The position numbers were made by a program, and so were the translations under genes. This document shows positions 1 through 17,675 of a stretch of DNA of 64,000 nt, piece by piece. How positions within the stretch are numbered: the stretch's first letter is position 1; every line of letters starts with the position of its first letter. The notes beneath the pieces are model-generated. The model was not told the DNA's origin. It did no database searches and saw nothing but the letters and a program-made list of their open reading frames with translations. The DNA comes from Gammaproteobacteria bacterium (GTDB lineage: Bacteria > Pseudomonadota > Gammaproteobacteria > GCA-001735895): positions 1 through 64,000 of the forward strand of contig JBNKUM010000040.1 in assembly GCA_050298595.1 (NCBI GenBank), given 5' to 3'.

Positions 1-865
1 ATTGGTCACTGCGACCGAGATTAGCTGGACTGCAGAGCCACCATTACCATCGTCGACTGTGACCTGCACCTGATAAACGCCATTGCTATCGGCATCGCTG
101 GGGTTCTCAAAGTCGGGAGCGCTGTTAAAGCTTAATATGCCGCCGCTTGTGATGCTAAACAGTGCGCTGTCTGTACCGCCGGTGATACTGTAACTCAGCG
201 CATCGCCATCCACATCTATGGCCGTGACAGTCGTTACTGCAGTCTGATTTTCGGCTGCGTTGACGTTGGCGTTGCTGGTAATCTGTGGCGCGTCATTCAC
301 ATTCGCGACATTGATGGTGAAGCTCTGGGTGGTGGTGAGGACTCCATCGGTCACTTCGATCACGACATTATGGTTACCCACTTCGGCATTGCCCGGGGTG
401 CCGCTGAGGAGCGCGGTGCCATCTCCGTTATCGGTGAGCATGAGCCAGGCTGGTAACGTGGTGGCGCTGATGCTCAGTGCATCGCCATCGTCATCGCTGC
501 TGCTGAGGGTGTAGCTATAGGCACTGTCCTGAGTGGCGCTGGTGATCGCGCTGCTGGTAATCTGTGGAGCATCATTTACATTGGTCACTGCAACCGAGAT
601 CAGCTGGACTGCAGAGCCACCCCGGCCATCGTCGACTGAGACCTGCACCTGATAAACGCCATTGCTATCGGCATCGCTGGGGTGCTCGAAGTCGGGGGCG
701 CTGTAAAAGCTCAACACACCGCCACTTGTGATACTGAACAGTGCGCTGTCTGTACCGCCGGTGATACTGTAACTGAGCGGATCGCCATCCACATCTGTGG
801 CCGTGACGGTCGTTACTGCGGTCTGGTTTTCAGCAGCATCAACACTGGCACCGCTGATGATCATG
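1..865 (-). repeat. Intragenic near-identical cadherin-domain repeats (~1-290 and ~580-865) separated by an Ig-like domain
   Basis: attggtcactgcgaccgagattagctggactgcagagccacc at 1 recurs nearly verbatim at ~580; period about 579 bp. Confidence 0.85.
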
Positions 866-3600
866 GGAGCAAAATTGGCGGTATGCTCATAGGCACCGAT
901 ATCGGCACTGAGTTCTCGCAGGTTACCAAGCTGATCGGTGACAGGTGCCGAACCGCCCGCAGCATTGTAGGCGATACTGGAGCCTGTAATCGCATGGAAA
1001 TACTGGCCAGTACCGGCATCCTGCACCAGCAGGCTCAAACTAGGATCACCACTCTGATCAGTCACATCAAGCGTAAACCCGGTAGAGTCACCAAAGATAT
1101 TGTGACCATTACTGGTAACAGCACCGTTGACATCAACCGCATACCACAGGGAGGTATTGTTAGCGAAGATTGAGTTACTTATGTTTGCAGTACCAGAAAG
1201 AAGATAGAGACCTCCCCCATTACCGTTAGTGGCTGAATTAAATGCCACCGTGCTGTAATTAATATTGATCGTACCACCCGCTATACGAATACCACCACCG
1301 TCAAATTCGGCGGTATTCCCACTGACGGTGACATTGGTCATGTTCAGTACACCAGACCTCACGGCAATGGCTCCGCCACCGGTTGCGGTATTGTTGTACA
1401 GTGAAACGCGATCCAGCGTCATGCTGCCCTCATTGTACAGAGCGCCTCCCACATTTCCGCTAATCGTGTTACCGCGAAATACAACATCACTGGCGACCAA
1501 TGTTCCAGCATTAGAAACAGCCCCGCCAGTCTGGTTAACGGTATTAGCACCCGTGACGGTCAGGTCTTTCAGGGTTAACGAAGCGCCTGGTTTGACGTCG
1601 AAAACTCGATCGCCGAGTAAGCTTGCGTCTATGGTGGTCAGCCCTGCACCTGCACCCTGTATGGTAATATCACCAGTAATATCCAGATCACCGAGCGCTC
1701 CCAGATCTTCATAAAGACCAGCCAGCGACAATGTATAGTTGCCCGCCGCCAGGAAGATCGTCTGGTGACCGGCTGTATTGTTGCTGGCTATGATCGCTTC
1801 ACGCAAGGAGATTAAACCGTCCAGCCCCTTGTCTGCGATCAGGTTGGACACCGAAGTTAAGCTACCGTCTACTACATCGCTCAAGGTGTCGACGATCAGA
1901 GCCTGATCAGCACTCACATTGGCGGAAAATTCAGAAGTTGAACCATAGCTCCTGTCTGCATTAATCACCGTAGCGGTCGCACTAATGGCCTGACCGCTTG
2001 TCACCGCCTGGTCAAAACTGGCAACAAAACTGGCATCGCCATTGCTATCGGTCAAAACGGTGGTATAGCCCAGGTAGTTTTGTCCTTCACCATATCCCGT
2101 AGCGTCAGCTGCTGCATTGGCGAAGAACTCGATGCGTAATGTGGTGTTGGCTGTACTGTTAATCGAGCCGGAAATAACGATTCTGCTACTATCTGATCCT
2201 GCCGCGGCAAGCACTGGGAAGTTCTGCAAATCATTGGCACCGCTATCGGCATCGCCAGCATCGTTGGCATTAACCCCATCGGTTGCCAGGTCGATCGCTA
2301 GGCCACTATTCCCAAAAATGCTGTTAGCAAGAAACGTATTAGCACTACCAGCATCACTGTTAACGAAAATTCCATCAGTACCGCAGCCAGTGATGACATT
2401 GCCAGCACCCGCAGTGTCACCACCGATCAGATTATTACTCGCGCCTGCGCTGAGGTATATGCCACCATTGTTACCCACGACATTGCCACTGGCATCCAGG
2501 CCAATGCTGTTGCTCTGTAAGGTGACATTGCTGGCGCCATTGAGCCAGATACCGTTGGTATTGCTGGTATTTAAGTTGTACAGGCCCAGCCCCTTGATGA
2601 TGGAGCCACTCGCGCCACTGTTGACGACCAGTCCATCGCTGGCACCAGCGGCGCTTCCATCGATAAACACCAGGGGGGTATCGATATATCCGGGTGCGGT
2701 GGTCGCATCAATGGTGATTTGATCGTTTAGCCCTGGCAATGCGCTTTGCAGCGAAATCGTACCAGCCACGCTGAATTCGATAGTATCCACACCACCAACG
2801 CTGTTGGCATCCAGAATGGCCTGGCGCAGTGTGCCTACACCTGAGTCAGCCAGTGAGGTCACCGTATAGGTCGCCAACGTCTCGCGATAGGTATCCTGGA
2901 ATCCAGTGCTCAGCGCGATATCATTGCCAATCTGACCGCGGTGATATTCAAGAATCCAGTCCCCGCCCAGGCTGCTATGACCGGTTAAGTCATCGGAGGC
3001 GGCAACATCAGCCATTGTCAGGTCACTCAGGTCATTAACCAGAGTTTTCCCAACCTCCGATTCGGCCAGGTTACAGCCGTAGATCAGGATATCGCCAGAT
3101 TCTGCGAAGGAATTAGCCCAAAGTGAAATATTCAGTCGATTTTCCTGCAGGGAGTCACTATTCAGAGAGCCACTTCCTAACTTTATTGATCCATCCGAAC
3201 CATGCGCAATGAGATGCAGTACATCCAGATTTTCATATTGCTGCAGAATAGAGGATATCTGTTCGACCCCATCACGCTGGCTATCGAGCACAACGATTTC
3301 GAGGTGACGACCGGTATCAGACTGGTTATTGATATCATCGATGAAGTTCTGGTAACCATCAATAGCACTATCGATAACGACGAGTTCGTGACTGAAATGC
3401 TGCTCAGCCTGCTCCGTGCCTGCGTCAAACTCCGAGATCACGTTATGCTGCTGACTGCTATCGACATCCAGATAGGTGGCGCTGGCAACGGAAGTAAGCT
3501 GCGTATCGATAACGCCTTCCAGCCCTGCCGAAAACAGCTGACGCGGTTCCAGCTCCTCCAGAATGAATGTGGTCTCCCTCCGGATAGACCGATGTTTCAT
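1..3600 (-). CDS. Giant secreted adhesin-like protein (LEPR-XLL leader, DUF4347, beta-helix repeats, cadherin/Ig repeats); 3' end beyond window edge
   Basis: Not in ORF track (open at edge). Manual translation from ATG at 3600: MKHRSIRRETTFILEELEPRQLFSAG, then DUF4347 motifs (LHLIAHGSDG, ILIYGCNLA, AASDDLTG..LGGDW), SLREAI and GGAI/GGGI repeats, DIGAYE, cadherin motifs (ATDVDGD.LSYSI, APDFE.P.D, V.NVNDAP). In frame to base 1. Confidence 0.9.
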   Translation of the reverse strand, partial: MKHRSIRRETTFILEELEPRQLFSAGLEGVIDTQLTSVASATYLDVDSSQQHNVISEFDAGTEQAEQHFSHELVVIDSAIDGYQNFIDDINNQSDTGRHLEIVVLDSQRDGVEQISSILQQYENLDVLHLIAHGSDGSIKLGSGSLNSDSLQENRLNISLWANSFAESGDILIYGCNLAESEVGKTLVNDLSDLTMADVAASDDLTGHSSLGGDWILEYHRGQIGNDIALSTGFQDTYRETLATYTVTSLADSGVGTLRQAILDANSVGGVDTIEFSVAGTISLQSALPGLNDQITIDATTAPGYIDTPLVFIDGSAAGASDGLVVNSGASGSIIKGLGLYNLNTSNTNGIWLNGASNVTLQSNSIGLDASGNVVGNNGGIYLSAGASNNLIGGDTAGAGNVITGCGTDGIFVNSDAGSANTFLANSIFGNSGLAIDLATDGVNANDAGDADSGANDLQNFPVLAAAGSDSSRIVISGSINSTANTTLRIEFFANAAADATGYGEGQNYLGYTTVLTDSNGDASFVASFDQAVTSGQAISATATVINADRSYGSTSEFSANVSADQALIVDTLSDVVDGSLTSVSNLIADKGLDGLISLREAIIASNNTAGHQTIFLAAGNYTLSLAGLYEDLGALGDLDITGDITIQGAGAGLTTIDASLLGDRVFDVKPGASLTLKDLTVTGANTVNQTGGAVSNAGTLVASDVVFRGNTISGNVGGALYNEGSMTLDRVSLYNNTATGGGAIAVRSGVLNMTNVTVSGNTAEFDGGGIRIAGGTININYSTVAFNSATNGNGGGLYLLSGTANISNSIFANNTSLWYAVDVNGAVTSNGHNIFGDSTGFTLDVTDQSGDPSLSLLVQDAGTGQYFHAITGSSIAYNAAGGSAPVTDQLGNLRELSADIGAYEHTANFAPMIISGASVDAAENQTAVTTVTATDVDGDPLSYSITGGTDSALFSITSGGVLSFYSAPDFEHPSDADSNGVYQVQVSVDDGRGGSAVQLISVAVTNVNDAPQITSSAITSATQDSAYSYTLSSSDDDGDALSISATTLPAWLMLTDNGDGTALLSGTPGNAEVGNHNVVIEVTDGVLTTTQSFTINVANVNDAPQITSNANVNAAENQTAVTTVTAIDVDGDALSYSITGGTDSALFSITSGGILSFNSAPDFENPSDADSNGVYQVQVTVDDGNGGSAVQLISVAVTN

Positions 3601-3825
3601 AGATCCCATGAATACTCGCTATGGAAATACTGCTTGGCTAATAGATTGCATATACAAAAACTACTTATTCGATCAGCTATTTTTTTGTTATTGCTGAACA
3701 GATTAAGTATAGATTGCCATCCTGAAGTTTCAGGGCAATAAGGATAGACGGTAATTAGAAACTATAGTAGTGAGAAGCTAATCACATAAACAGGCGTCAA
3801 ACAGGGGGGGAACTTGATTGGTGAG

Positions 3826-4662
3826 TTAATGGTCACGGATTACAGCCTGTGGCGCCTCAAAATCAAAACGCGCCCGGCAGTTAACACCAGGTACTAATCC
3901 TTCACCCAGGTTAGGTAGAATCATACGGACAGTAAAACTGCCACTGGCTGGATCTATCAGTTGGTCAACCACACTAACCCTGGCCTTAAAGGATTTATTC
4001 ACGGGTTGCTCTGGAAAGACATCTACATTCATTCCGCTACGGATCAGGCCAAAGTATTGCGCGGGAGCAATCACTTCCACACGTAAGGGGTCAATCTGAG
4101 CCAGCTTCATAATGGTACGATCAATCACCGATTCGCCGGCATGGGTGTAACTATCCACCACTATGCCATCAATCGGGCTTTTGAGGGTACGCAAGGCCAG
4201 TTCCACCTCGGCCTTGTGCAGGTTTAACTGAGCCAGCTTTCTATTTTCTTTCGCCTTGATGAGTTCGATTTTTGCCAATTCAAACTCTGTATTCGCCTTA
4301 TCTTTTTCAAATAGCGAGACAGAGTTTTTATTGTATAAATCCTGCACTCGTTTCAGATTTCGTTTAGCGTACTCCAACTGTACTCGTCTGTTTTCCACTT
4401 CACTCCAGGATTCCGCCTGTTGTTGAGCTAGCTCGAGCTTGGCGATCTCAACCGAATTTTCGAGCTGAACCAGAGGTTGCCCCTTAGTGATTTTGTCCCC
4501 TATTTTGACTAACATCTGTTTCAGGGTGGTATCCACTGGACTACTCAACTCGATGTACTTCTCAGGTCGAACCAGGCAATCGAGTTCAGCCTTATCAGCT
4601 AAGGCCGGGTCTGAACTTAGCAGAAGGCCAAGTGATAGCAATGTGGTAATTTTCAGTTTCAT
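3826..4662 (-). CDS. Membrane fusion protein / RND-type periplasmic adaptor (HlyD family)
   Basis: Likely start MKLKITT (4662) with signal peptide; lipoyl-like halves (VKIGDKITKGQPLVQL; LKSPIDGIV), coiled hairpin, IDPASGSFTVR. Confidence 0.88.
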   Translation of the reverse strand: MKLKITTLLSLGLLLSSDPALADKAELDCLVRPEKYIELSSPVDTTLKQMLVKIGDKITKGQPLVQLENSVEIAKLELAQQQAESWSEVENRRVQLEYAKRNLKRVQDLYNKNSVSLFEKDKANTEFELAKIELIKAKENRKLAQLNLHKAEVELALRTLKSPIDGIVVDSYTHAGESVIDRTIMKLAQIDPLRVEVIAPAQYFGLIRSGMNVDVFPEQPVNKSFKARVSVVDQLIDPASGSFTVRMILPNLGEGLVPGVNCRARFDFEAPQAVIRDH

Positions 4663-4678
4663 TGAGTATTTTCGCAAG

Positions 4679-6670
4679 TTATTCAAAACAGCCGGAAAAG
4701 GCCAGCACACGCCGCAATCGTTTATCTTCTTTCATGAGTTGATTTCTGATGCGACGTTGTTCTTTCTCATATTTTTTCTGTGGCAGATACAGTATCAGAT
4801 TTCCAGGCCAGGCTTTGACTGGAGCATGATCCGTCGCGAACCTGGCCATTAGCCTGAGCATAGCAGAAGAATAGTATTGCATTAAAAGCGGATCCTGCAG
4901 TGATAATATGGCTTCACTACTTCCGGGATCACCCTGGCGGGCGCAACGCCCGTAAAGCTGACGATCAACTCGACGCGAGGCATTGCGACACAGTGCCAGC
5001 ACATGCAGGCCGCCTTTTTCTGCCACACCGGGCGCCAGAGCGATATCCGTCCCCCTTCCCGCCATATTAGTTGCAACGGTAATGGTAGCAGACTGGCCAG
5101 CCTGGCTGATAATTTCCGCCTCCTGTTTATCCTGGCGCGCATTGAGGACCTGGTGCGGAAGTTCTTGCTGCTGTAGCCAGGCACTGACCTGTTCTGATTC
5201 GGCGACACTGCAGGTACCCACCAGCACCGGTCGCCCCTGCCGGTAAAGTTCGCCAATACGCTCAATAAAAGCCTGTTTTTTTTCATCCTCATTTCGGTAC
5301 AGCTTTTGCGCCATCATGTGACGTTTTGAGGGTTGATGGGTTGGGACCTTGATGACATCAAGGTCATACACCTGGCGTAATTCACTGGACACTTCGGCAA
5401 GGGTTCCCGAAGTACCCGCAAGACGCAGATAGCGACTAAAAAAGCGCTGGTAGCTAATCCTCGCCAGTGGTTCACGTTGCTCACTAATGATGCAACCTTC
5501 CTTGGCTTCGATCATCTGGTGTAAGCCCTGTTCCCAGGAGCGATCAGGCATCAGTCGACCAGTGGATTCATCGATAATTACCACCTTGCCATCCTGGACA
5601 ATATAATGCCTGTCCTTCAGGTAAAAATGCGTGGCGCTAAGTGCCAGAGTGACCAGGCGTTCGCGTTTGCGTTTATGCCGCCATTGTGCAGGCAGGTTAT
5701 GGATTAAATCAGCAAGCCTGTGCTCAGCGCGCTCAGTTAACTCAACCTGGCGTGCTTTTTGATCAAGCCGGTAATCCTGGTCCGGAAACAGGGTTGAGGC
5801 CAGGTAGAGCGCATCGCTATAGGTTTCATTGGATTCATCATTAGCTAGTGTACGGCTTATAATCAATGGGGTTTTCGCTTCGTCGATCAACACGCTGTCA
5901 GCCTCATCAATCAGGGCGAAGCACAGTCCGCGTAGTAGCAAAGGCTGTTTTGCGGCGCGCTGACGCTGATACTGTCTCCATTCAAAACGCTGGCGGCCGG
6001 TGTCCTGCCCCATCTCGATACGATCACGCAGATAGTCAAACACAATCTGTTTATTGGTGGTATGTACGATATCGCATTGATATCCCTGCTGACGCGTCTC
6101 CAGCTCCATGCCATCGGTAATAGCAGCCGCACTAAGTCCCAGGCGTTGATACAGGGGTTGCATGATCTCGCAATCACGCGCTGCCAGATAGTCATTCGCG
6201 GTAATGACGTGAACGGGTATCCCCGCCAAAGCCGCTGTACAGGCTGGCAGGGTGGTGGTCAGGGTTTTACCTTCACCGGTTTCCATTTCTGCCAGTATAC
6301 CGTTGATCATCAACCAGCCTCCGAATAGTTGTTCATCATAATGACTCTGCCCCAGGGTGCGCCCAGCTGCTTCGCGGATGAGTGCAAAAGCCTGAAACAT
6401 CAATGCTTCGTCAAGTCCCTGGCGATAGAGCTGTTCACGCAGTTGCTGGATGCTGTCGGTGAGCTCCTGTTCCGACATTGGCAGTAGCGACGCCTGTTGT
6501 TCATGCACTCGTTGAGCCACCCATTGCACGCTATGTTTTTTGCGCGTAAAGCGCTTTTTTAAATGCATGAAAAAATGCCTGACCTGTTGCTCCAGCTCGC
6601 TAAGATCGGAGGCCTTTTTCTGCGGATAACTGCCAAGACGCAAACCGGGGCGAAGGTGTAATTCAGACAT
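4679..6670 (-). CDS. SecA-like DEAD ATPase (short accessory SecA paralog)
   Basis: AEMETGEGKT, VHVITANDYLA.RD, IDEADSVLIDEA, ATNMAGRGTDI, RRVDRQLYGRCARQGDPGSS; 663 aa, lacks the C-terminal wing/Zn-finger region of housekeeping SecA. Confidence 0.92.
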   Translation of the reverse strand: MSELHLRPGLRLGSYPQKKASDLSELEQQVRHFFMHLKKRFTRKKHSVQWVAQRVHEQQASLLPMSEQELTDSIQQLREQLYRQGLDEALMFQAFALIREAAGRTLGQSHYDEQLFGGWLMINGILAEMETGEGKTLTTTLPACTAALAGIPVHVITANDYLAARDCEIMQPLYQRLGLSAAAITDGMELETRQQGYQCDIVHTTNKQIVFDYLRDRIEMGQDTGRQRFEWRQYQRQRAAKQPLLLRGLCFALIDEADSVLIDEAKTPLIISRTLANDESNETYSDALYLASTLFPDQDYRLDQKARQVELTERAEHRLADLIHNLPAQWRHKRKRERLVTLALSATHFYLKDRHYIVQDGKVVIIDESTGRLMPDRSWEQGLHQMIEAKEGCIISEQREPLARISYQRFFSRYLRLAGTSGTLAEVSSELRQVYDLDVIKVPTHQPSKRHMMAQKLYRNEDEKKQAFIERIGELYRQGRPVLVGTCSVAESEQVSAWLQQQELPHQVLNARQDKQEAEIISQAGQSATITVATNMAGRGTDIALAPGVAEKGGLHVLALCRNASRRVDRQLYGRCARQGDPGSSEAILSLQDPLLMQYYSSAMLRLMARFATDHAPVKAWPGNLILYLPQKKYEKEQRRIRNQLMKEDKRLRRVLAFSGCFE

Positions 6671-8810
6671 TAAACTGCCTCAGAAATATTTGACGCAAGC
6701 GGCGCATAAGCTGAGTTGCCAAAGGTTCACCACCATGATCGATCCGCACATAGGCGCGCATACCAAAAGGAATATTCTGCTGCTCGGGATCAAACCGGAG
6801 GTCAACCAGAAAAACCTTCTGCATAGCAAGTAATGGATTATTGTTATCCCCTGTGACAATAAATGAGCCGCCCCCGTCGATACTCAGAGCCGCATGGGGA
6901 AGTTGACTGGTCGCTTCCGGTGCCTGGCTGATGATACTGGCTGAATACTCCCTTTGGGTATCATTGGCAAAACGGATACGGATGTCCTTGATCTGTTGGC
7001 GTAATTGCCCAATATGGTCCTGACTGACGGCCATATGCACGGTAGAAGCTGGTTTATCAACTACATAGCCCAGCACTTCACCCTGATGGACGAAACGTCC
7101 CGGCAGGTCCTCGGCCTGTGGAATGACCAGCGTGCCGCCGACATTGGCCTTCAGCGACATTGAATTCAACTTATCCAGCAGATAGGAATATTCAGATTCA
7201 GCTATACCAAGCTCTTCCCTGATCAATCCCGCCTCAACCGGGTTTTCGATGCGTCTGGAGCGATACTGAATCTTAAGCTCACTTAACCTGGCTTCGGCAA
7301 TTTTCAATTTGCTCTGCAGAAAGGGGTCAATCAGTTGCAATACGGTGGTCCCCTCCTGCACCTGCTGCCCGTTATCCCGCTTTATCTGTCCAACAAAACC
7401 ATCGTGCCTGGCTTTTAGTAATCCCTCTTCCGGCTGCCACACCACACCTTCACTTAAGGTATATGAAGGAATAGGGACAAAGCCAATAAGAGCAACCAGT
7501 ACAATTACTAACACCATTGACCCCAGTACCGCACGCCCTCGATGCTTCTTCACCCCAGGACTGGTCAGCATGAAGTGCAATGCCCTGTATAGCGGTGACA
7601 GCAATTGCTGGCTGACTAGCCACAGGCTCAGCATCACACCCAGCAGGAAGAATTTTTCCGCAACCAGTACAAAGATGAACCATAAAACACTGAAGCGGTA
7701 AATCAGTGACGCAAGACTATAACCGATAAACCAGTAGACCTCCCCATCTGCCGAAACGGGTGAGTTGAGCTGCTTCAGTCCTAACAGGTAATGCTTGAAA
7801 ATATACTGCCAGTATTGGGCTGAGCGCTGGTAGAGGTTTGGGATACCAATCGCATCAGACAGAATATAGTAACCATCGTATTTTAACAGTGGATTCGCGT
7901 TAAAAAACAACGAGGAGATACCACCAATGATAAACATGTCAAACCCTATGTTATGTACCAGACCTGGTTCGGTCGCGAGGAATAACAGCAAGCCCAGAGC
8001 CGCGATGGAGGACTCAACCAGTATACCGGCTGCACTGACCAACATGCGCTTATATTTGTTACGAAAATGTGTGGCGGCAGATACATTGACATAAGGAACT
8101 GGCATCAGCAGCAGAAAAGTCACCCCCATTTCATGCACTTCACCACCTTCTAGCCGGGCACTGAAAGCATGCCCGAGTTCATGCAGAACTTTAATCGCCG
8201 GATATAACAGAAACATCAATAACAGGTTGTAGGGCGACAACGCATTAATCGCGAAATGCTGACTGATGCTCGGCCAGTTCTGTAACGCCTGTGACAGGCT
8301 GTAAACCATCAGGATCACCCACAGTAGCGCCATCCAGGGTGTAAAAACCCAACGCACCTTATCGAAATGACGTTGCAGAAAATGTTCCGGATCCCACAAT
8401 GGAACCTTTAATGCAGCCGGGTTGAGAAGGCGTTGCAACAGACGGTCTTTATGGTGTTTTTCCTTTCGCTCAAAGAGCTCCTCGGTATTGATAGCAAAAT
8501 CTGACTGGATCAGATCGGCTGCATGCAGCTGGCCGAGTAGCTGGATAATCTCAGGCTGGCCCGGTGCCTGATCATCAAGCTGTTCACTGACCAGTTGATA
8601 GATTTCTTCCACACTGCGCTTGCCGTCGAGATAGCCGATAACCAGATAAGCCGCAGGGTTAAAACGGTGACTGCGAGCAGTCATTGTATTTTCCAACAGG
8701 TACCAGATCAGGCCACGATATTGCTGCCGATGAATCACGACATGTTGATGTAATCGGGGTTTTAAATTGCTGACCCGATACCACAGGGGGCTAATCACTC
8801 CATCATTCAT
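6663..8810 (-). CDS. PqqD-like domain + site-2 (M50) zinc metalloprotease + HlyD-type adaptor fusion
   Basis: HELGH and NANPLLKYDGYY S2P motifs among TM helices; N-terminal LDGKRSVEEI winged-helix segment; C-terminal lipoyl/coiled-coil MFP. Confidence 0.85.
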   Translation of the reverse strand: MNDGVISPLWYRVSNLKPRLHQHVVIHRQQYRGLIWYLLENTMTARSHRFNPAAYLVIGYLDGKRSVEEIYQLVSEQLDDQAPGQPEIIQLLGQLHAADLIQSDFAINTEELFERKEKHHKDRLLQRLLNPAALKVPLWDPEHFLQRHFDKVRWVFTPWMALLWVILMVYSLSQALQNWPSISQHFAINALSPYNLLLMFLLYPAIKVLHELGHAFSARLEGGEVHEMGVTFLLLMPVPYVNVSAATHFRNKYKRMLVSAAGILVESSIAALGLLLFLATEPGLVHNIGFDMFIIGGISSLFFNANPLLKYDGYYILSDAIGIPNLYQRSAQYWQYIFKHYLLGLKQLNSPVSADGEVYWFIGYSLASLIYRFSVLWFIFVLVAEKFFLLGVMLSLWLVSQQLLSPLYRALHFMLTSPGVKKHRGRAVLGSMVLVIVLVALIGFVPIPSYTLSEGVVWQPEEGLLKARHDGFVGQIKRDNGQQVQEGTTVLQLIDPFLQSKLKIAEARLSELKIQYRSRRIENPVEAGLIREELGIAESEYSYLLDKLNSMSLKANVGGTLVIPQAEDLPGRFVHQGEVLGYVVDKPASTVHMAVSQDHIGQLRQQIKDIRIRFANDTQREYSASIISQAPEATSQLPHAALSIDGGGSFIVTGDNNNPLLAMQKVFLVDLRFDPEQQNIPFGMRAYVRIDHGGEPLATQLMRRLRQIFLRQFNV

Positions 8811-8822
8811 GACTGCCCGCCC

Positions 8823-10580
8823 CTATGGCCACCATGACCAGAACCAGAGCCTGGCCCAGTCGATAAAATCGTGCGTCCAGATCCACAACAGCTTAGCGCG
8901 CCCAACGTTTATTTTAGCGACACCCTGCATACCAGGGCGCAGAAAATCGGTGGCCTTGTTCAACGAGGCTTCCACCCGGAAAATGTTGGCGCCATCTTCT
9001 GCGCGTGAAGCGATAGTGACTTTTTCCACGCTCAGGGGAAGCTCAACATCGGACAGACTGGGCAGGATCAACTGCCCCTGCTGTCCCGGGTGAACCTTAG
9101 AAATCTGCTTTTCATCCACCTTGAGGATAATACGATACCCATCCAGCGGTGCGATCTTAAACAGGCTTTCCCCTCGCTCTATGGGTGATCCTAGCGACTG
9201 CGCCAAATCCCCCTCAATAACCACCCCATCAAATGGCGCGGTCAAATTAACGCGGTCGAGCTGCTGCTGGGCCAGTTCGATTTCGGCACTGATTTGCTTG
9301 AGCTGTTCATCCATGATGCGCACCTTGACCAGGTTGCGTGTCGACTGAGCCTCTCGATGTTCACGTCGTGCTTTCTGTAGCTTCCCCTGTAGCCTGGCCA
9401 GCTGCAAATTAATCTCGGCATCATTCAGGCTCGCCATGACGTCACCCTGGCGAACCGTGTCCCCGGCGCGCGCAGCGGCGGATAGTAGATACCCGTCAAA
9501 CGGTGCGCTAACCACTCGCTGAACCCGCCCTTCAAGAATCGCATCAGCGGTCACTCTATAGTCTGCATCAACCAGACTACCCACCGTAACCAGTAATACC
9601 AGCATGATGATGGCTAACTTCGCCTTCAGATGGTGGACACCTGTCAGCGATTGCATTGATTGTCTGAGTGCTTGGATATTCTTCTGCAGCAGATTTTTTT
9701 CCTGTTCCCGCTTTAACGCCAGATAGGGTGTCAGTAGCAGAAAAGCCTGTTGGCATAATCGACTGTTTTCTTCGGTGAATGGGGTTTCTTCATTACGTAG
9801 CAGGGAGATCGCAGCAAAAGGCTGTTCCTTGTGCATCAGAGGAATGGTTAGAATGGAACCAAAGCCATCTATGCGACCGAGTACCTGATGTGATCGTTGA
9901 ATGTAACGAGCATCCGGATTCGGGAACAAGATGACGCTATCCTGCTCTATAGCTTCATCCATGGCATCTGCCACTTTTTGAATCAAGTTTGAGCGCGTAT
10001 CGAAATCAGCACTATTGGAAAGCGCGACAACCTGACTGTAATACCCCTTATACTCAGAAAAAGCCACACGTTCACAATTGAACATCAACGTAAGTTCAGT
10101 GACCATAGCGATCAGGCTTTGCTGATAGGAGTTCTTCTCGAAACAGGCTGAGAGCAAGGCGACCACTGAAGCATAGAAGTTGTCATCATTATACTGAGAG
10201 GAAGTCGATACCAACCTCAACCACTGGATGCTTTTATTTAACAGCTCCTGTACAGCTTCTCTTCCAGTATCTGAGGTACTTTTAGTACGCACTAACAGCA
10301 CGCCCACTAATCTGGATTTCAGGTAAAATGGTAACGCAAACAGATCTGAATCCTGATCCTCGGTTTTTATCGCTTCTGGGAAACAAACAGGCTCGCGCTT
10401 CTTTAAGGCGTATTTCATGACGCCTGAGAAATAGTCAATCTTATTTTGATCTGCAGGCCATTTTGCCAATGGTCTTAACTGCTTATGCTTGCTATCCGGC
10501 ACCATAAGCAGAGCTGACTCAACACCCGACAACTGTGCACAAAGCAGGTTTAACCATTTTTGAGTAAAGGTTTTATTCAT
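8823..10580 (-). CDS. GAF-domain HlyD-family membrane fusion protein
   Basis: N-terminal GAF-like region, one TM, VSAPFDGYL..ARAGDTVRQGD, LTAPFDGVV, LRPGMQGVAKI. Confidence 0.85.
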   Translation of the reverse strand: MNKTFTQKWLNLLCAQLSGVESALLMVPDSKHKQLRPLAKWPADQNKIDYFSGVMKYALKKREPVCFPEAIKTEDQDSDLFALPFYLKSRLVGVLLVRTKSTSDTGREAVQELLNKSIQWLRLVSTSSQYNDDNFYASVVALLSACFEKNSYQQSLIAMVTELTLMFNCERVAFSEYKGYYSQVVALSNSADFDTRSNLIQKVADAMDEAIEQDSVILFPNPDARYIQRSHQVLGRIDGFGSILTIPLMHKEQPFAAISLLRNEETPFTEENSRLCQQAFLLLTPYLALKREQEKNLLQKNIQALRQSMQSLTGVHHLKAKLAIIMLVLLVTVGSLVDADYRVTADAILEGRVQRVVSAPFDGYLLSAAARAGDTVRQGDVMASLNDAEINLQLARLQGKLQKARREHREAQSTRNLVKVRIMDEQLKQISAEIELAQQQLDRVNLTAPFDGVVIEGDLAQSLGSPIERGESLFKIAPLDGYRIILKVDEKQISKVHPGQQGQLILPSLSDVELPLSVEKVTIASRAEDGANIFRVEASLNKATDFLRPGMQGVAKINVGRAKLLWIWTHDFIDWARLWFWSWWP

Positions 10581-11288
10581 AGGATCTTAAATCTGTCCCA
10601 AAACTTGATCGAATAACAAACAAACCATAAACCCAACTACAAAACAGGTCATATTCAAAGCGTCAAGAAACACTCCGATTAAAACGTAGATTCGGTCAGG
10701 GATTGTGCCCTGGCAAAAACTACAGCATATTTCATACACCCCTCAGCTTCATCCCAGTTGTCGATGTCAGGCTGAGCACTTTTGAAGTCCTACTATTGAT
10801 ATTAACAATGAAAGGCCCGCGTGAGCCTGCCCTCGCGCTGAAAACAATAGATTGAGGGTGGGTTACCATAAGGTCATTTTAGCCCTATTAACAAAAATGA
10901 AGCATACGAGTTCTTTCAAAATTGATTTTACAAGCAACCTTTTGAATCGATAGAGAACCTGACCATTAGAGATTGTAGTATGATACTGGCACAAATTCTG
11001 AAATTTATTCACTGACCGGGTCTGACCCATTAAATACACCAAAATGAATCACTACTCCGGGCTTACTATTAGCAAAAAAATCTGTGCTATAAGGTAGGGT
11101 TAGCGTTTGCTTTACGACTTTGTTTAATTTATACATTGCTGTATCTACGCAACTATGTAACTGCTCTATCTCCTCACCATCATCTGGATAAATTAAAGCA
11201 CCAATAATCTCTCCTGGTTTTTCCTCAATTGGGTTGTCTCGATGGATTGATTTAATTTAAGATCATAATTGTATATCGCCTCAATTAT

Positions 11289-11318
11289 TTGTCTTTCTCC
11301 TCGGCCTTGCCATATACT
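11289..11318 (+). promoter_or_regulatory. Putative sigma70 promoter of YdcH-like gene copy 1
   Basis: TTGTCT-N18-TATACT, conserved with the same spacing upstream of the paralog (45928-45957). Confidence 0.5.
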
Positions 11319-11359
11319 AATTACCACTTTCCTTTCCAATTCAACTCTCAGAGGTGAAC

Positions 11360-11602
11360 ATGCTAGGTGAACATCACGAAATCGAAACAGAATTCCCCGA
11401 GTTTCGCCTGCGATTAAAAGAACTGTCCGAAACCGATGCGGATTTCGCTGTAATTATCAAACGACATAACGAACTCGACAAGGAAATCCGCAAGCTGGAA
11501 GAACTCGGACAACCGGTTACAGACGAAACATTGGAGAAAATGAAATACGAACGCGCCGATCTGAAGGATGCGGTGTATGCACGTATTCGCTCAAGTTCAT
11601 AG
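11360..11602 (+). CDS. YdcH/DUF465 family small coiled-coil protein (copy 1)
   Basis: EHHEIETEFPE..D..F..HNELDKEI..LE..LEKMK.ER..LKD pattern; GAGG RBS. Confidence 0.85.
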   Translation: MLGEHHEIETEFPEFRLRLKELSETDADFAVIIKRHNELDKEIRKLEELGQPVTDETLEKMKYERADLKDAVYARIRSSS

Positions 11603-11634
11603 AGTTAATGTATTTTAATTTACTACTCCCGCTA

Positions 11635-14205
11635 TCACTTTAAATACTGTTTTATAAAGGCGCTTATTCCCTCAATATCAAACCCTTTCGCCAGTTTTAG
11701 TAGCTGATGGGCAAACGGAATGTAAGCCTCATTCTCTGCTTGCAGGCGAGAAGCTATCTCCTGTATTTCAAACACCAGTCCTACATCAGCTAACTGATAC
11801 AATTCATGCAGCTGTTCGCTGGGTGGTATGACCAAAACTGCCTCGCATTCGCTTTCTGCTTCAGCGTATAGCAATGTCAATCCCAGCTGCTTTTCCAGGC
11901 TGTGATAGATTTCTTCGAAGCGGTAGGGTTTGCTGACGTAGTCATCTATGCCTGATGTGCGTAAGGCTTCCTCCTGATCTTTTAAGGCAGAGGCGGTAAC
12001 GGCGACGACCTTCACCTGTTCCCCGCCCGGCAATTCGCGAATGCGACGGGTGGCCTCGACTCCGTCCATGACTGGCATGCGTCGGTCCATCCAGATCAGA
12101 TCTGGTTTCCAGTGCTGGAATATCTGTATGCACTCTTCGCCGTTCTGCGCCACCTTTACCTCCAGACCGAGGTCGGTCATCAGCCTGGCGAGCAGGATTT
12201 GATTGTCCCGCTGGTCCTCGACAATCAGGATGCGGCGGGTGGCCTGCCCCGGCGCGAGGCCTGCCACTGCTCCGTGACTTTCATCACTCAGGCGGATCAT
12301 CTCCGCCTCATCATCAGGCTCATTCAGCGGCAGCTCGACACGAAACAGAGCCCCCTTACCCGGTTTACTTTCTACAGAGACATTTCCTACCATCAGTTGC
12401 ACGAACTGATGCACGATAGCGAGTCCCAGTCCCGTCCCCCCCTGCGAAGAAGAGCCTGAAGACAGTTGTTCGAAAGGCTTGAATAGACGCTGCTGATCCT
12501 TTTTGCTAATCCCCGGACCTGTATCCTCGACCTCGATCAGTAGATGGTGATGGGCATTGTGTTTGCTACGCAGACGGATGGTCACACCGCCCTGTTCGGT
12601 GAACTTCACCGCATTGCTTACCAGATTAACCAGGATCTGCCGTAATCTCGCCTCATCCCCCCTGATTAAGTGAGGCAAATCTGACGATTGATCCAAAGCC
12701 AGTTGCAGCCCCTTCTGTTGCGCCCGCAGACTCATCATGTCACTCACCTCACGCACCAGTTTGTGCAGATCAAAGGTGGTGATCTCCAATTGCAGCTTAC
12801 CTGCCTCTATCTTGGCAATCTCCAGTACATCATTGATCAGTTTGAGCAGGTGATCACCGCTGTTATTGATGATTTCCAGGTTTTCCCGCTGGCTGGCACT
12901 TAGGGACTGATCCTGGCGAACCAGTTGGGAGAAACCGAGGATGGCGTTGAGTGGGGTACGCAATTCATGGCTCATGTTGGCCAGGAAGGCACTCTTGGCT
13001 TTGTTAGCCGAGTCCGCTGCATCGCGTGCCAGGCGCAACTCATGGGTACGTTGCTGGACAGTTTCCTCAAGGTGCTCCCTGTAGCGCAAAAGTTCCTGTT
13101 CCGCTCGTTTACGCTCGCTGAGGTCGTAAACCAGACCAACGAATCCCGTGATTTCCCCCCCTTCGTCCCGCAGCGCAGTCACGGATAAATTCACCGGCAC
13201 TCGCCTTCCATCCTTGCGAATGAAGGTCCATTCGTTTTCCTCGGTAAGATTGCGCCGCGGGCGGGCAGTAAACACGTCAAACCCCACCTGAATCGTTTCG
13301 CCCAGTTCGTCGGTCAACTGTTGGGCATAGCGCGCAACTTCTTCTGGATCGTGCCAGTAACCAGGCGTCTGCTTACCGACTATCTCCTCTGCTGAGTAAT
13401 CCAGCAAACGCTCGGCAGCAGGATTAAAGCTGGTGACGATTCCTTCGGGTGTCGCGGAAATGATGCCGTAGGCCACATTGTCCAGAATCGTGCGTTGAAA
13501 GATCGTAAGCTGGCGCAAGTCATCTTCTCGTTGCTGGATAACCTCCATCATGGCGTTGAAGTTTTTGCCTAGCTGAGCCACTTCATCTGTGCCGTTTGCG
13601 GGAACGCGATGCGTATAGCTCGCACTGGTCCGAACAAGTTCACTCGCCTGTGTCAGTTTTGCAATGGGACGCGTAAGCGTACGCCGCAAAACCAGTAATT
13701 GGGCAACCGTGACCAGAAGCAGAACGAGTACGCCCATGCCGAATATCCACAGGGCCTGCTGCGTTTGCTGACTAAGTTGTTCGAGCCCCATGCTAAGTCG
13801 CAGACGCCCTCCTCCAGGAAGCGCTTGCAGCAGCTCCGCCGTGTTAAGCTCCAGATAGAGGCCATCCGGCCTGGTAAGCAAAGGCGCTGGGGAGGCGTTT
13901 GGTACACGGCTGAAGCGAGCCAGCATCCGCCCGCCATCCAGATAAATGACTGCTTCCCGTATCTGCGGATTTGCACGCAGGGTATCAAGAATCTCCTGGG
14001 CACGGACGGGATCCTCAAATACCACCGCCGCATCCGTGCCAACGGAGACCAGTTGTGCATAAGGTTCCATGATCTGGCGGGTGCGATGCTCCAGGGTAAA
14101 GCTCTGATACAGCACTACCCCAGTGCCGACCATCACAAATGCCAGCAGGGCTGTGCCCCAAAGCACGAGTGCCAGTCTGTTATGTATGTTCAGTTGGATA
14201 GACAT
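11635..14205 (-). CDS. Hybrid histidine kinase: periplasmic YfiN-like sensor, HAMP, PAS, HisKA, HATPase, REC, helical tail
   Basis: Two TMs; [18 protein letters not shown]; [10 protein letters not shown]; DTGPGI; GGTGLGL; [10 protein letters not shown]. Confidence 0.93.
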
Positions 14206-14206
14206 C

Positions 14207-14809
14207 TTATCTCACGTGGCGGAGTTTGCCGTGTTCCAGAATATCACTGGAAACTTCCAGCATTCTGGTCTGTATCTTCAGTGCGGCAGCACGGGCCTGG
14301 TCGAGATTGATGCCCATAGACACCCTATCCACGACCTTAAACCCTATTACCCCACCTTCTCGCAGGAATTCCGGCGCATCACCGACCGTCAGTACCGGCC
14401 TGTTTTTCAATTTATCAAGAACCGAATGACGCTGCGCCGCATCCCTGTATGCAATGAAGATGATCTGGCATGGTGGTAACTCATCCGGCGTATCTGCGCG
14501 GAATATTTCAAACGCACGGCCCTGTTCGCTACGGCCCTCGAAGGTTTTTTCCAGAATCTCGCCAAAGGGATCCCGACCCAGAATGCCGATGCACCAGGGC
14601 GAATCGCTACCGGAAAATGCCTCATCTGGCCAGGTCACGTAGTGAGCGAAGTTGCGCAAAAAAGCAGCCTTGACTCTGTACGGGTTATCCACCACCAACT
14701 CCGCACTCACAACATGGCCTGGCATAGACAGTATGAATAGCAGAAAAATCACACTCAGCCCTGCCCTTGAGCCTCGTAGCAAACAAGAGTATCTGAACTG
14801 CGTTTTCAT
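14207..14809 (-). CDS. YfiR family (DUF4154) periplasmic protein
   Basis: Y.VKAAFL.NFA.YV.WP, C..CQIIFI, VLTVGD, INL..A..A.LKI..RML; start placed at MKTQ. Confidence 0.88.
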   Translation of the reverse strand: MKTQFRYSCLLRGSRAGLSVIFLLFILSMPGHVVSAELVVDNPYRVKAAFLRNFAHYVTWPDEAFSGSDSPWCIGILGRDPFGEILEKTFEGRSEQGRAFEIFRADTPDELPPCQIIFIAYRDAAQRHSVLDKLKNRPVLTVGDAPEFLREGGVIGFKVVDRVSMGINLDQARAAALKIQTRMLEVSSDILEHGKLRHVR

Positions 14810-14822
14810 ACCTGACCCTGAA

Positions 14823-17198: not shown

Positions 17199-17492
17199 CG
17201 CTATCCATCTATTAGGAAATTCGCGCAAGAGGGAACAAGAAATAAAAAGTAGCATCAACATTGATTAGTTCTCCGAAATGGACCCATCAATAGGGTCTGT
17301 TACCTCTCCTAGAATCAATGAGTTAGATTCACTAACTGTCAAATCAAATAGTATAATTTTATTACACAAAGGCATTTTTTATCGAAGTCTCACTGTGCCA
17401 GGCCAGCTAAAAGCTGCGCAGTGGGCTCATCCTTTTCAACTGGGAGATATCATCATTTCTTTTCATATCTTTTTTATTGTTTAACTTCTTTG

Positions 17493-17675
17493 TTCTTTCA
17501 ATCCATATCCTTTAGACATGACCTTTATCACTCATAGAATAGACCATAAATTAATCAATAACTCGCAAAAAAACCAGGATTTGGGAAACAAACTATCCGT
17601 CTATGGCTCTGACAAATTCAATTCATGCAATATATTTGAAGGGTCAGAATGTAGTTCAATTTATTACATGTTCTA
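17493..17675. repeat. Conserved non-coding cassette leader, copy A
   Basis: tccatatcc..ctttatca..gaatagaccataaat..aacaaactatccgtct..acaaattcaattcatg..gtcagaat..tcaatt; similar to 24420-24620 and 45216-45383. Confidence 0.8.

Follow-up and report, generated by a model that had tools for sequence, protein, structure and literature searches.

Gene Organization of the Cassette

The stretch of DNA analyzed in this study (hereafter, the window) comprises the first 64 kb of contig JBNKUM010000040.1 (C40) from a 5.49 Mb, 119-contig metagenome-assembled genome of an uncultured gammaproteobacterium (GCA_050298595.1). The open reading frame (ORF) listing of the window places five co-oriented, minus-strand ORFs in bases 1–10580, which encode an adaptor with two GAF domains, a fusion of a PqqD-like domain (RRE), an M50 intramembrane zinc protease, and an HlyD-type adaptor (P0002), a short SecA paralog (P0003), a small adaptor, and the N-terminal part of a giant adhesin-like protein (P0001) with a LEPR-type leader. 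Co-occurrence and adjacency across genomes support that this cassette belongs with LEPR-type giants, and we consider it fairly probable that it encodes a dedicated, leader-guided, TolC-coupled apparatus, which would span the cell envelope and serve the adjacent giant.

The GAF-adaptor gene (8823–10580; this and all following cassette features are on the minus strand) encodes 585 residues with matches to GAF_3, GAF, and HlyD_3/HlyD_D23 (Pfam and NCBIfam). Hydropathy predicts a single membrane helix at residues 322–340, and the sequence indicates a layout of two cytoplasmic GAF domains and a periplasmic HlyD-type membrane-fusion domain. Orthologues occupy the equivalent position in related loci. 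The second gene, separated from the first by 12 bases, encodes the 715-residue P0002 (6663–8810; Pfam, NCBIfam, and AlphaFold2), in which the PqqD-like domain spans approximately residues 18–101 (8508–8759; Pfam PqqD at residues 47–101 and the structural model), the HELGH zinc-binding motif of the M50 domain lies at residues 210–214 (8169–8183; motif and alignment), and the periplasmic adaptor part covers approximately residues 446–715 (6666–7475; Pfam, model, and Foldseek) with an alpha-hairpin at residues 496–549. It overlaps by 8 bases with the gene for P0003 (4679–6670; 663 residues; SecA_DEAD, SecA_PP_bind, and P-loop_SecA). The small adaptor, a membrane-fusion protein (3826–4710; 294 residues; HlyD_D23 and HlyD_3), probably starts at an internal methionine (MKLKNTT..., ~4662) and carries a Sec-type signal peptide; its orthologues in the related loci L005 and L007 begin at the corresponding methionine with a signal-peptide-like N-terminus. 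With such a signal peptide, this protein would be a soluble periplasmic adaptor. The fifth gene encodes the N-terminal 1203 residues of P0001 (1–3609), open at the window edge and continuing on contig C83, with the leader at residues 1–29 (3523–3609; a basic N-terminus and then the LEPR-type motif) and a DUF4347 domain at residues 76–245 (2875–3384; Pfam, 171.7 bits against a cut-off of 24.6).

A search with a single protein retrieved six related loci, and the order of GAF-adaptor, M50-adaptor, (SecA), adaptor, and giant is repeated in L004–L007 and in loci of a class-level genome sample described below. Locus L008, a high-G+C region with unresolved ORFs, is left out of all counts. The ORFs, domains, and hydropathy profiles confirm the arrangement described in an earlier sequence-only reading of this DNA, namely a co-oriented run of a GAF-containing membrane-fusion protein, a PqqD/M50/membrane-fusion protein, a short SecA, and a further membrane-fusion protein next to a giant with an LEELEPRQLFS motif and no signal peptide. 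A promoter and terminator scan of bases 3300–11800 was uninformative, with fewer sites than in shuffled sequences, and Rfam searches of bases 1–20000 yielded nothing at gathering scores.

The Giant Protein and Its Leader

The N-terminus of P0001 consists of a basic stretch followed by ...FILEELEPRQLFSAG, which includes the LEELEPRQLFS motif. The first 80 residues contain no hydrophobic signal (best 19-residue Kyte-Doolittle window, 0.82), and the leader alone is predicted by AlphaFold2 to be disordered, with a predicted local distance difference test (pLDDT) score below 50 for residues 6–69. In an alignment of 21 leaders, L20, E21, and R23 are invariant and L25 is nearly invariant. The same combination of a basic stretch and phi-E-x-L-E-x-R-x-L-phi-S-A-D/G heads the neighboring giant in L004–L007, L040, L043, L047, L049, L058, and L063, and the motif is located at the giant N-terminus by coordinates in genomes G149 and G147 and, in broken form, in G148 and G056. 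The LEPR-8K model (NF012209; 24 positions, cut-off of 17 bits) scores the related giants of L063 and L040 at 36.2 and 27.7 bits, and that of L058 at 16.2 bits. P0001 is not reported by this model at E ≤ 10, and nothing in the window genome (G000) is reported at E ≤ 0.05, a result in which HMMER filters may have dropped so short a match. Judged by eye rather than by threshold, the window leader is a divergent member of the LEPR type.

Contig C83 ends in exactly the 106 bases with which C40 begins, and since the window starts at the first base of C40, the giant gene was cut by the assembly and not by biology. The C83 piece contributes 1342 further residues of cadherin/Big_9 repeats, such that the gene encodes at least ~2500 residues unless repeats were collapsed during assembly. 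Downstream of DUF4347, P0001 contains beta-helix-like segments and cadherin, Big_9, and He_PIG repeats. The C-terminus on C83 shows no HemolysinCabind match and no repeats-in-toxin (RTX) motifs. It closes with a moderately hydrophobic stretch rich in glycine (best 19-residue window, 1.46) and a lysine-rich tail (L001:11865–12110, minus strand). This end resembles a sorting signal or tail anchor. The idea that the cargo generally has a C-terminal membrane anchor was rejected, since the stretch and tail are common only to the close relative in L005 and eight other C-termini differ; the giants of G128 and G147 end in a faintly similar G/A-rich stretch and basic cluster.

DUF4347 comes after the leader in 14 of the 15 LEPR giants inspected. 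Residues H132, H136, D173, C179, and D201, among others, are invariant in 15 sequences and occur in “..HG..” and “..YGC..” contexts. The AlphaFold2 model of the domain is confident (pLDDT ≥ 90 in most 10-residue blocks), and its best fold matches include the Pseudomonas type VI secretion effector chain in 9qpe (VIA Z 11.6), followed by the CHAT domain of SAVED-CHAT 8tl0 (Z 9.1, root-mean-square deviation 3.1, 135 residues aligned), while matches to caspases, legumain, and C11 proteases (Z ~6–7) fall within the background range. The modeled domain looks like a CHAT/caspase-like (clan CD-like) alpha/beta fold, and it may act as an autoprocessing protease. The window genome encodes a second DUF4347 protein of 3020 residues on contig C110 (L002:5481–14543, minus strand), which starts with an ordinary Sec-type signal peptide, lacks the LEPR motif, and ends in an OmpA-like beta-barrel, and whose gene adjoins a sulfotransferase gene with no cassette nearby. 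DUF4347 is thus not tied to one export route.

Co-occurrence of the Cassette with LEPR Giants

The association between the cassette and LEPR giants was examined in two genome samples. The class-level sample comprises 300 scored genomes (G248 was not scored, and G141 is unpublished), among which P0002 has matches in 37 at E ≤ 1e-20 and, leaving aside the window genome, in 17 at E ≤ 1e-95. At E ≤ 1e-3, LEPR-8K matches 15 genomes, i.e., 13 of the 36 M50-positive genomes other than the window genome versus 2 of the 263 negative genomes, the latter two being G058 (82% complete) and G105 (780 contigs). At the more permissive E ≤ 0.05, the counts are 19 of 36 versus 15 of 263, and most of those 15 are near-threshold matches to short ORFs.

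In the phylum-level sample (n = 301), the profile of the M50-adaptor fusion (A1) matches 88 genomes and LEPR-8K matches 38 at E ≤ 1e-3. All 38 LEPR-positive genomes carry the M50-adaptor fusion, and no LEPR match occurs in the 213 M50-negative genomes. Counted by genus, LEPR is present in 22 of 45 M50-positive versus 0 of 123 M50-negative genera. Co-occurrence was evaluated by Fisher tests, the p-values of which make the association look stronger than it is because related genomes are not independent. Adjacency points in the same direction: among the matches listed, at least 27 of 54 LEPR matches lie on a contig with an M50-adaptor gene, and the gap is 12 kb or less in 25 of these 27, both counts being lower bounds given that three M50-adaptor candidates were scored per genome and 28 further matches lie outside the list. 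Profiling LEPR proteins against M50-adaptor genes across genomes, as the sequence-only reading had proposed, has thus borne out the link. Genome G320 contains three cassettes, and a separate giant and SecA paralog accompany each of them. In G147, a two-partner secretion pair, consisting of a ShlB/POTRA transporter and a protein with a TPS domain (more than 1661 residues), is inserted between the LEPR giant and the cassette (L062:12688–19930, plus strand).

The RRE-M50-Adaptor Fusion and Predicted Leader Recognition

P0002 belongs to a large family, with at least 2874 relatives among 90%-identity clusters (E ≤ 1e-5), many of them exactly 715 residues long and ~60% identical. Its Pfam scores fall just under the cut-off for PqqD (22 versus 23.4 bits) and under the cut-off for Peptidase_M50 (23.7 versus 27.2 bits), and HlyD_3 is also matched. 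Residues 18–414 align to positions 1–372 of the 379 positions of NF041824, the daptide RRE/site-2 protease family (E 5.8e-34), with a score of 117.8 bits against an equivalog cut-off of 300, and by this sequence comparison P0002 is a homologue, not a member, of that family of intramembrane metalloproteases. The site-2 protease core is present: H210, E211, H214, N304, N306, P307, and D312 are invariant in 28 sequences (29–78% identity), and both HExxH and the downstream NxxPxxxxD zinc-ligand motif are intact.

The AlphaFold2 model of P0002, built on a 28-row alignment (mean pLDDT of 81.9; predicted template modeling score of 0.60), shows three strands and then three helices at residues 24–97, an order that we take to be the RRE arrangement. 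These are followed by a helical membrane domain, which includes the HExxH helix, by a long membrane helix at residues 418–444, and by an adaptor part with a two-helix hairpin (496–549) and beta domains. For the C-terminal part, Foldseek ranks MacA, MexA, and EmrA highest (E 1e-10 to 1e-8); at the sequence level, P0002 has no match to solved structures at E ≤ 0.01.

A complex of P0002 residues 1–425, residues 1–50 of the giant, and a zinc ion was predicted with a score of 0.73 (0.74, 0.73, and 0.73 in the individual runs), compared with 0.00 for the best of three controls; this score may partly reflect likeness to solved RRE-leader complexes, and the custom alignments and the riding zinc ion differ from the conditions under which the predictor was calibrated. 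Of 157 solved complexes, 116 attain the 0.73 mark, as do 2 of 215 mismatched pairs. Agreement between the runs amounts to at least 82% of the contacts, with a partner pLDDT of at least 53. Leader residues 12–29 and 31–33 are predicted to contact both RRE residues 38–39, 45–51, and 81–98 and M50 residues 207, 210–211, 214, 231–247, 299–312, and 324–325. The lowest predicted errors are found where leader residues 16–20 pair with the RRE strand 46–51, leader residues 20–23 are placed in contact with N325 and Y315, and the interface takes in H210, E211, H214, and D312. Taken together with the homology to RRE leader peptidases and the invariant HExxH and NxxP..D residues, the complex prediction suggests that the PqqD-like domain binds the leader and hands it to the M50 site, which lends in silico support to the earlier proposal that the RRE recognizes the LEPR leader.

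The same homology could also point to a different cargo, namely a small peptide resembling ribosomally synthesized and post-translationally modified peptides (RiPPs), which the cassette would export and mature while the neighboring giant is unrelated. The RRE-M50 part is homologous to the leader peptidases NF041824 and NF058609, adaptors of this kind also serve bacteriocin exporters, and there are weak matches to NHLM_micro_HlyD. Nevertheless, no modification enzymes or precursor-like genes were found among the neighbors scanned, the linkage to LEPR giants is tight, and the leader-RRE prediction was obtained with the giant’s own N-terminus. We regard such a peptide cargo as highly improbable.

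The SecA Paralog

P0003 contains SecA_DEAD, the preprotein cross-linking domain (SecA_PP_bind), and the second P-loop domain (Pfam), and is 38% identical to the housekeeping SecA encoded on contig C8 (C8:209630–211453). It aligns to residues 17–151 and 207–648 of the 822 residues of T. maritima SecA and to residues 35–605 of B. subtilis SecA (of ~800–840 residues). The first nucleotide-binding domain (NBD1), the cross-linking domain, and NBD2 are kept, whereas the C-terminal third of SecA is absent, as P0003 ends at the start of the scaffold helix. The missing part is presumably the helical wing domain, the two-helix finger, and the C-terminal tail, and P0003 would thus lack the parts that canonical SecA uses at SecY. 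Walker A GEGKT (132–136), DEAD (255–258), NMAGRGTD, and RxDxQLxGRxxRQG are invariant in 10 paralogs, and the conserved motifs suggest that the paralog is most likely an active ATPase. P0003 scores below all four cut-offs of the SecA2 models TIGR03714, TIGR04221, TIGR04397, and NF012136.

The paralog is not a constant part of the cassette. In the class-level sample, it adjoins the fusion in 8 of 13 informative strong-tier loci (G149, G128, G107, G048, G147, G010, G069, and G135; G195 and G068 are cut at a contig end and are not among the 13) and in none of five weaker-tier loci. The five strong-tier loci without an adjacent paralog are G112, in which a paralog is located elsewhere, G215, which is fragmentary, and G292, G148, and G291, which have the cassette and the giant with only a SecA of ~900–930 residues. 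In the phylum-level sample, 27 of the 38 LEPR-positive genomes encode one or more short paralogs, located beside the M50-adaptor gene wherever both are listed, and the other 11 have only the housekeeping SecA, so a motor role cannot be essential to the family. The sequence-only reading had SecA replacing the ABC motor; this may hold at most for one clade, in which the paralog has intact ATPase motifs, and cannot be a general rule given those 11 genomes and the five strong-tier loci without an adjacent paralog. Because the paralog is not universal, the core of the system consists of the M50-adaptor, further adaptors, and a TolC-type channel, to which one large clade, that of the window, has added the SecA paralog.

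The presence of a SecA could instead indicate a two-step Sec route, in which the paralog (or the housekeeping SecA) delivers the giant to SecYEG, the M50 enzyme acts as a leader or signal peptidase, and the adaptors and TolC complete the passage across the outer membrane, much as MacAB-TolC is thought to carry some peptides from the periplasm across the outer membrane. Consistent with this route, every ATPase motif and the preprotein cross-linking domain are retained in the paralog, the housekeeping SecA is present where there is no paralog, the small adaptor appears from its sequence to be a soluble periplasmic protein, and Gram-positive SecA2 exports giant adhesins with unusual leaders. On the other hand, the leader has no hydrophobic core (best window 0.82), the paralog lacks the helical wing and two-helix finger by the domain limits that we assume, no SecY-like gene occurs among the neighbors scanned, and the RRE is cytoplasmic and fused to an adaptor, which suggests direct hand-over. 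On balance, passage through SecYEG seems unlikely.

Candidate Outer Membrane Channel and Genomic Surroundings

Whole-genome family searches returned no OEP, ACR_tran, or ABC (ATP-binding cassette) nucleotide-binding matches in C40:1–64000, in agreement with the earlier observation that ABC, resistance-nodulation-division (RND), and TolC genes are absent from the window. The nearest ABC matches lie beyond it at C40:65075–66468. The window genome has four OEP genes, several RND pumps, and a single ABC transporter of the type 1 secretion system (T1SS) kind, all outside the window. TolC-type genes adjoin the cassette in five related loci, namely L044, which belongs to the tier with SecA, L063, and the weaker-tier loci L057, L058, and L059. 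The closest counterpart of the L044 channel in the window genome is encoded at C8:230168–231430 (31% identity, E 7e-56), and this TolC-like gene is probably the channel partner of the cassette. The label “ABC-less T1SS-like” given by the sequence-only reading fits as far as the ABC transporter is concerned, but the TolC that it requires is unlinked here and linked in five related loci.

Among 78 neighboring ORFs scanned in related loci (17 plus 61, the 61 being a hand-picked subset of 109 candidates plus six others), there was no ABC or RND domain, and the neighboring ORFs scanned contained no SecY-like gene and no RiPP-modifying enzymes or precursor-like genes. An ABC transporter with a C-terminal RTX signal left of the window, which the earlier reading had named as its counter-case, was rejected: the joined contig C83 contains the remainder of the giant gene and then a PAS-GGDEF-EAL gene, a gene for an acyltransferase, and unrelated genes, with no ABC transporter, no TolC, and no RTX signal. 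The genome’s T1SS-type ABC transporter is also unlikely to be the missing motor, as it is part of a complete Lap-type T1SS locus on contig C68 (L107:1–10468), which contains outer membrane factor, BTLCP (LapG-like), LapD-like, ABC, adaptor, and LuxR-type genes and has its own cadherin adhesin, cut by the contig start. The TolC-like protein of this locus (714 residues) is a fusion that also includes a cadherin/Big_9 domain and a C-terminal domain of the OmpA family.

The PAS-GGDEF-EAL protein (1009 residues; L001:8700–11729, minus strand) is encoded on C83 directly after the giant gene. Orthologues follow the giant in L005, L045, and L049, with 36% identity over the full length in L049 and L045 and 78% over the 160 residues available in L005, while the paralogs within the window genome align only over the C-terminal half. 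This neighbor hints at control of the giant adhesin by cyclic di-GMP (c-di-GMP). Several other genes recur in the vicinity of related cassettes: SapC (L041, L048, and L063) and DUF3467 (L042 and L048) recur beside the cassette when the giant is located upstream of it, HDOD genes are found near L006 (twice) and L042, and stand-alone C39-like peptidases near L005 and L050.

These regulatory genes could mean that the cassette is not an exporter but a retention-and-release or signaling device, which would hold or clip the N-terminal end of the giant upon a GAF or c-di-GMP signal while the giant leaves the cell by another route, comparable to the control of LapA by LapD and LapG. The GAF domains on one adaptor, the PAS-GGDEF-EAL orthologues after the giant here and in L005, L045, and L049, and the HDOD genes near L006 and L042 are compatible with such a device, as are the RTX-type repeats of some LEPR giants, e.g., that of L042 and one of Vibrio described in the available part of PMC10868602. 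The window giant, however, has no RTX repeats or T1SS-type C-terminus, no ABC transporter is present beside the examined loci, and the T1SS-type ABC transporter of the genome has its own LapD, LapG, and adhesin. In addition, unless a duct is formed, the three adaptors and the linked TolC genes are difficult to account for. We therefore consider retention and release an improbable function for the cassette as a whole.

Upstream of the cassette, a 1-kb gap of low G+C content (10581–11634; 0.42 in the 10001–12000 bin versus ~0.50 around it) separates it from a kinase gene. The sole ORF of at least 80 residues in the gap is on the plus strand (11354–11602), and the gap has no Rfam match and no promoter-like sites in excess of shuffled sequences. 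Beyond it, minus-strand genes at 11635–17261 encode a CHASE8-HAMP-PAS hybrid histidine kinase, a YfiR-like periplasmic protein (NF053591, TOL_0243 family, above the cut-off), and a TonB-dependent receptor, which may form a separate sensory module.

Proposed Mechanism

In the reading that we favor, the cassette would act as a leader-guided export apparatus for the giant. The basic stretch and the L-E-x-R-x-L motif of ~14 residues would dock as an added strand on the cytoplasmic RRE of P0002, and the residues after the motif would enter the site of the M50 intramembrane zinc protease, where the leader would be removed. Beyond its predicted membrane helix, P0002 extends into the periplasm as a HlyD-type adaptor bearing an alpha-hairpin, and together with the GAF-adaptor and the small soluble adaptor it may form a duct to a TolC-family channel, the gene of which is unlinked here. 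The giant would pass through with its N-terminus first. In the clade of the window, the shortened SecA, which keeps the motor and the preprotein clamp, may provide ATP-driven unfolding or pushing. The GAF domains and the conserved GGDEF-EAL neighbor would probably gate the process.

The Chlorobium chlorochromatii giants Cag_663 and Cag_665, as described in the available passages of a 2026 bioRxiv preprint (10.64898/2026.03.19.712371), have LEPRxLL motifs and are flanked by SapC and a TolC-like gene. According to these passages, both are expressed and transferred out to the partner cell though they “lack known signals”, and these data offer experimental support that LEPR giants are exported.

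Several points weigh against a leader-guided apparatus as outlined above. The inner-membrane step is its weakest, being without precedent, as we know of no M50 protease that acts as a protein-conducting pore and there is no transporter-like protein in the cluster. The SecA-less loci and genomes described above, i.e., the five strong-tier loci (three of them with only a full-sized SecA) and the 11 of 38 LEPR-positive genomes, speak against a universal motor, and the complex prediction is to be read with the two limits given with its score. The window leader goes unreported by LEPR-8K, and some LEPR giants have RTX-type repeats, as in L042 and the Vibrio protein. Moreover, 50 of the 88 genomes with the M50-adaptor have no LEPR match at E ≤ 1e-3; these may have divergent leaders, such as that of L058 at 16.2 bits, or other cargo. 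Finally, the authors of the Chlorobium preprint propose, in the same passages, export in the opposite direction, C-terminus first, by SapC, TolC, and an unlinked HlyD (10.64898/2026.03.19.712371).

A more far-reaching version of the leader-guided apparatus is a further class of TolC-coupled machine across the envelope, in which the inner-membrane component would be no transporter but a ring of RRE-M50-adaptor fusions that would read the leader, thread proteins of thousands to ~19,000 residues N-terminus first, and clip the leader in passage. The truncated SecA would then be an add-on motor in one clade, and the folding of calcium-binding repeats outside the cell would serve as a ratchet in the SecA-less clade. 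We put forward this version only tentatively, as a possibility that we hold to be doubtful.

Giant surface proteins are among the largest bacterial proteins, and there is no established export route for those tagged with LEPR. The present data tie this tag to a specific and widespread machine and to a concrete, predicted recognition step. If the leader-guided apparatus operates as proposed, it would cross the diderm envelope without an ABC, RND, or major facilitator superfamily component, it would represent a new role for site-2 proteases and SecA-type motors, and the leader could become a portable tag for the secretion of very large proteins.

Comparison with Known Systems

The gene module itself has been described previously. 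Kamneva, Poudel and Ward (2015; PLoS One, PMC4452313) reported, in the main text, a cluster of GAF+HlyD, Peptidase_M50+HlyD, a secondary SecA_DEAD, and HlyD/Biotin_lipoyl genes, sometimes with OEP, and proposed that the SecA paralog serves as ATPase and that the M50 protein forms the membrane pore of a system whose biological role they called “completely unknown”. The carriers that they name include the cultivable Methylobacterium extorquens AM1 (META1p2399–2402). The window matches their locus definition, with a second, short SecA_DEAD gene in a same-strand cluster with M50+HlyD, GAF+HlyD, and HlyD genes. Their “secondary SecA_DEAD/type-I-secretion-related” locus thus contains the same four proteins and comes with the same proposal for the motor and membrane component, and neither the module nor the idea of a SecA motor and an M50 pore is new (PMC4452313). 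The main text of that paper names no cargo and does not contain the words “PqqD”, “adhesin”, or “cadherin”. To this locus, the present analysis adds the link to LEPR giants, the RRE-leader prediction, and the finding that the SecA-less tier also has LEPR giants. As far as the literature was searched, the cargo link and the proposed leader-recognition step are new in print: there was no follow-up to PMC4452313, LEPR-XLL appeared in passing mentions only, none of the DUF4347 papers concerned secretion, and nothing relevant was returned for SecA, HlyD, M50, and secretion in combination, for a SecA paralog or homolog with a membrane fusion protein, a site-2 protease, and giant proteins, or under T12SS, T13SS, and type XII secretion.

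HlyBD-TolC, LapBCE-LapA, and peptidase-containing ABC transporters are type 1 routes for giant adhesins and leader-bearing peptides. With type 1 secretion (HlyBD-TolC and LapBCE-LapA), the cassette shares HlyD-type adaptors, a TolC-family channel in related loci, and a giant repeat adhesin without a Sec signal. It differs in having no dedicated ABC transporter, an N-terminal signal in place of an RTX-type C-terminus, and three different HlyD-type membrane-fusion proteins. The resemblance to peptidase-containing ABC exporters lies in a protease domain of the inner-membrane component, which would remove an N-terminal leader; in place of a C39 cysteine protease, however, the cassette has an RRE-bearing M50 zinc enzyme, and part of the family also has a SecA-type ATPase.

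The RiPP leader peptidases (daptide MpaP, NF041824; YydH/LiaK, NF058609) share with P0002 an N-terminal PqqD-like RRE fused to M50 and an intact HExxH, and RRE-leader complexes have already been solved. P0002 differs from them in an additional membrane helix and a periplasmic adaptor of 270 residues, a presumed substrate of thousands of residues, and the absence of RiPP-modifying enzymes nearby. MpaP, the founding member of NF041824, is described in the available part of PMC10036551 as an RRE-dependent intramembrane peptidase that removes the leader.

The accessory SecA2 of Gram-positives and mycobacteria is likewise a second SecA devoted to special cargo, and the cargo of SecA2-SecY2 consists of giant adhesins with unusual N-terminal leaders. 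P0003, by comparison, falls below the SecA2 cut-offs and is truncated after NBD2 at the start of the scaffold helix, no SecY2 or Asp genes were seen, and it is partnered, in a diderm envelope, by adaptors and an M50 protease. The Chlorobium giants share the N-terminal LEPRxLL and have SapC and TolC-like neighbors as in L063, L041, and L048, whereas the window has no SapC gene and “M50” does not occur in the available passages of the preprint. We rate the cassette as a putative variant of TolC-coupled secretion, far from any characterized system.

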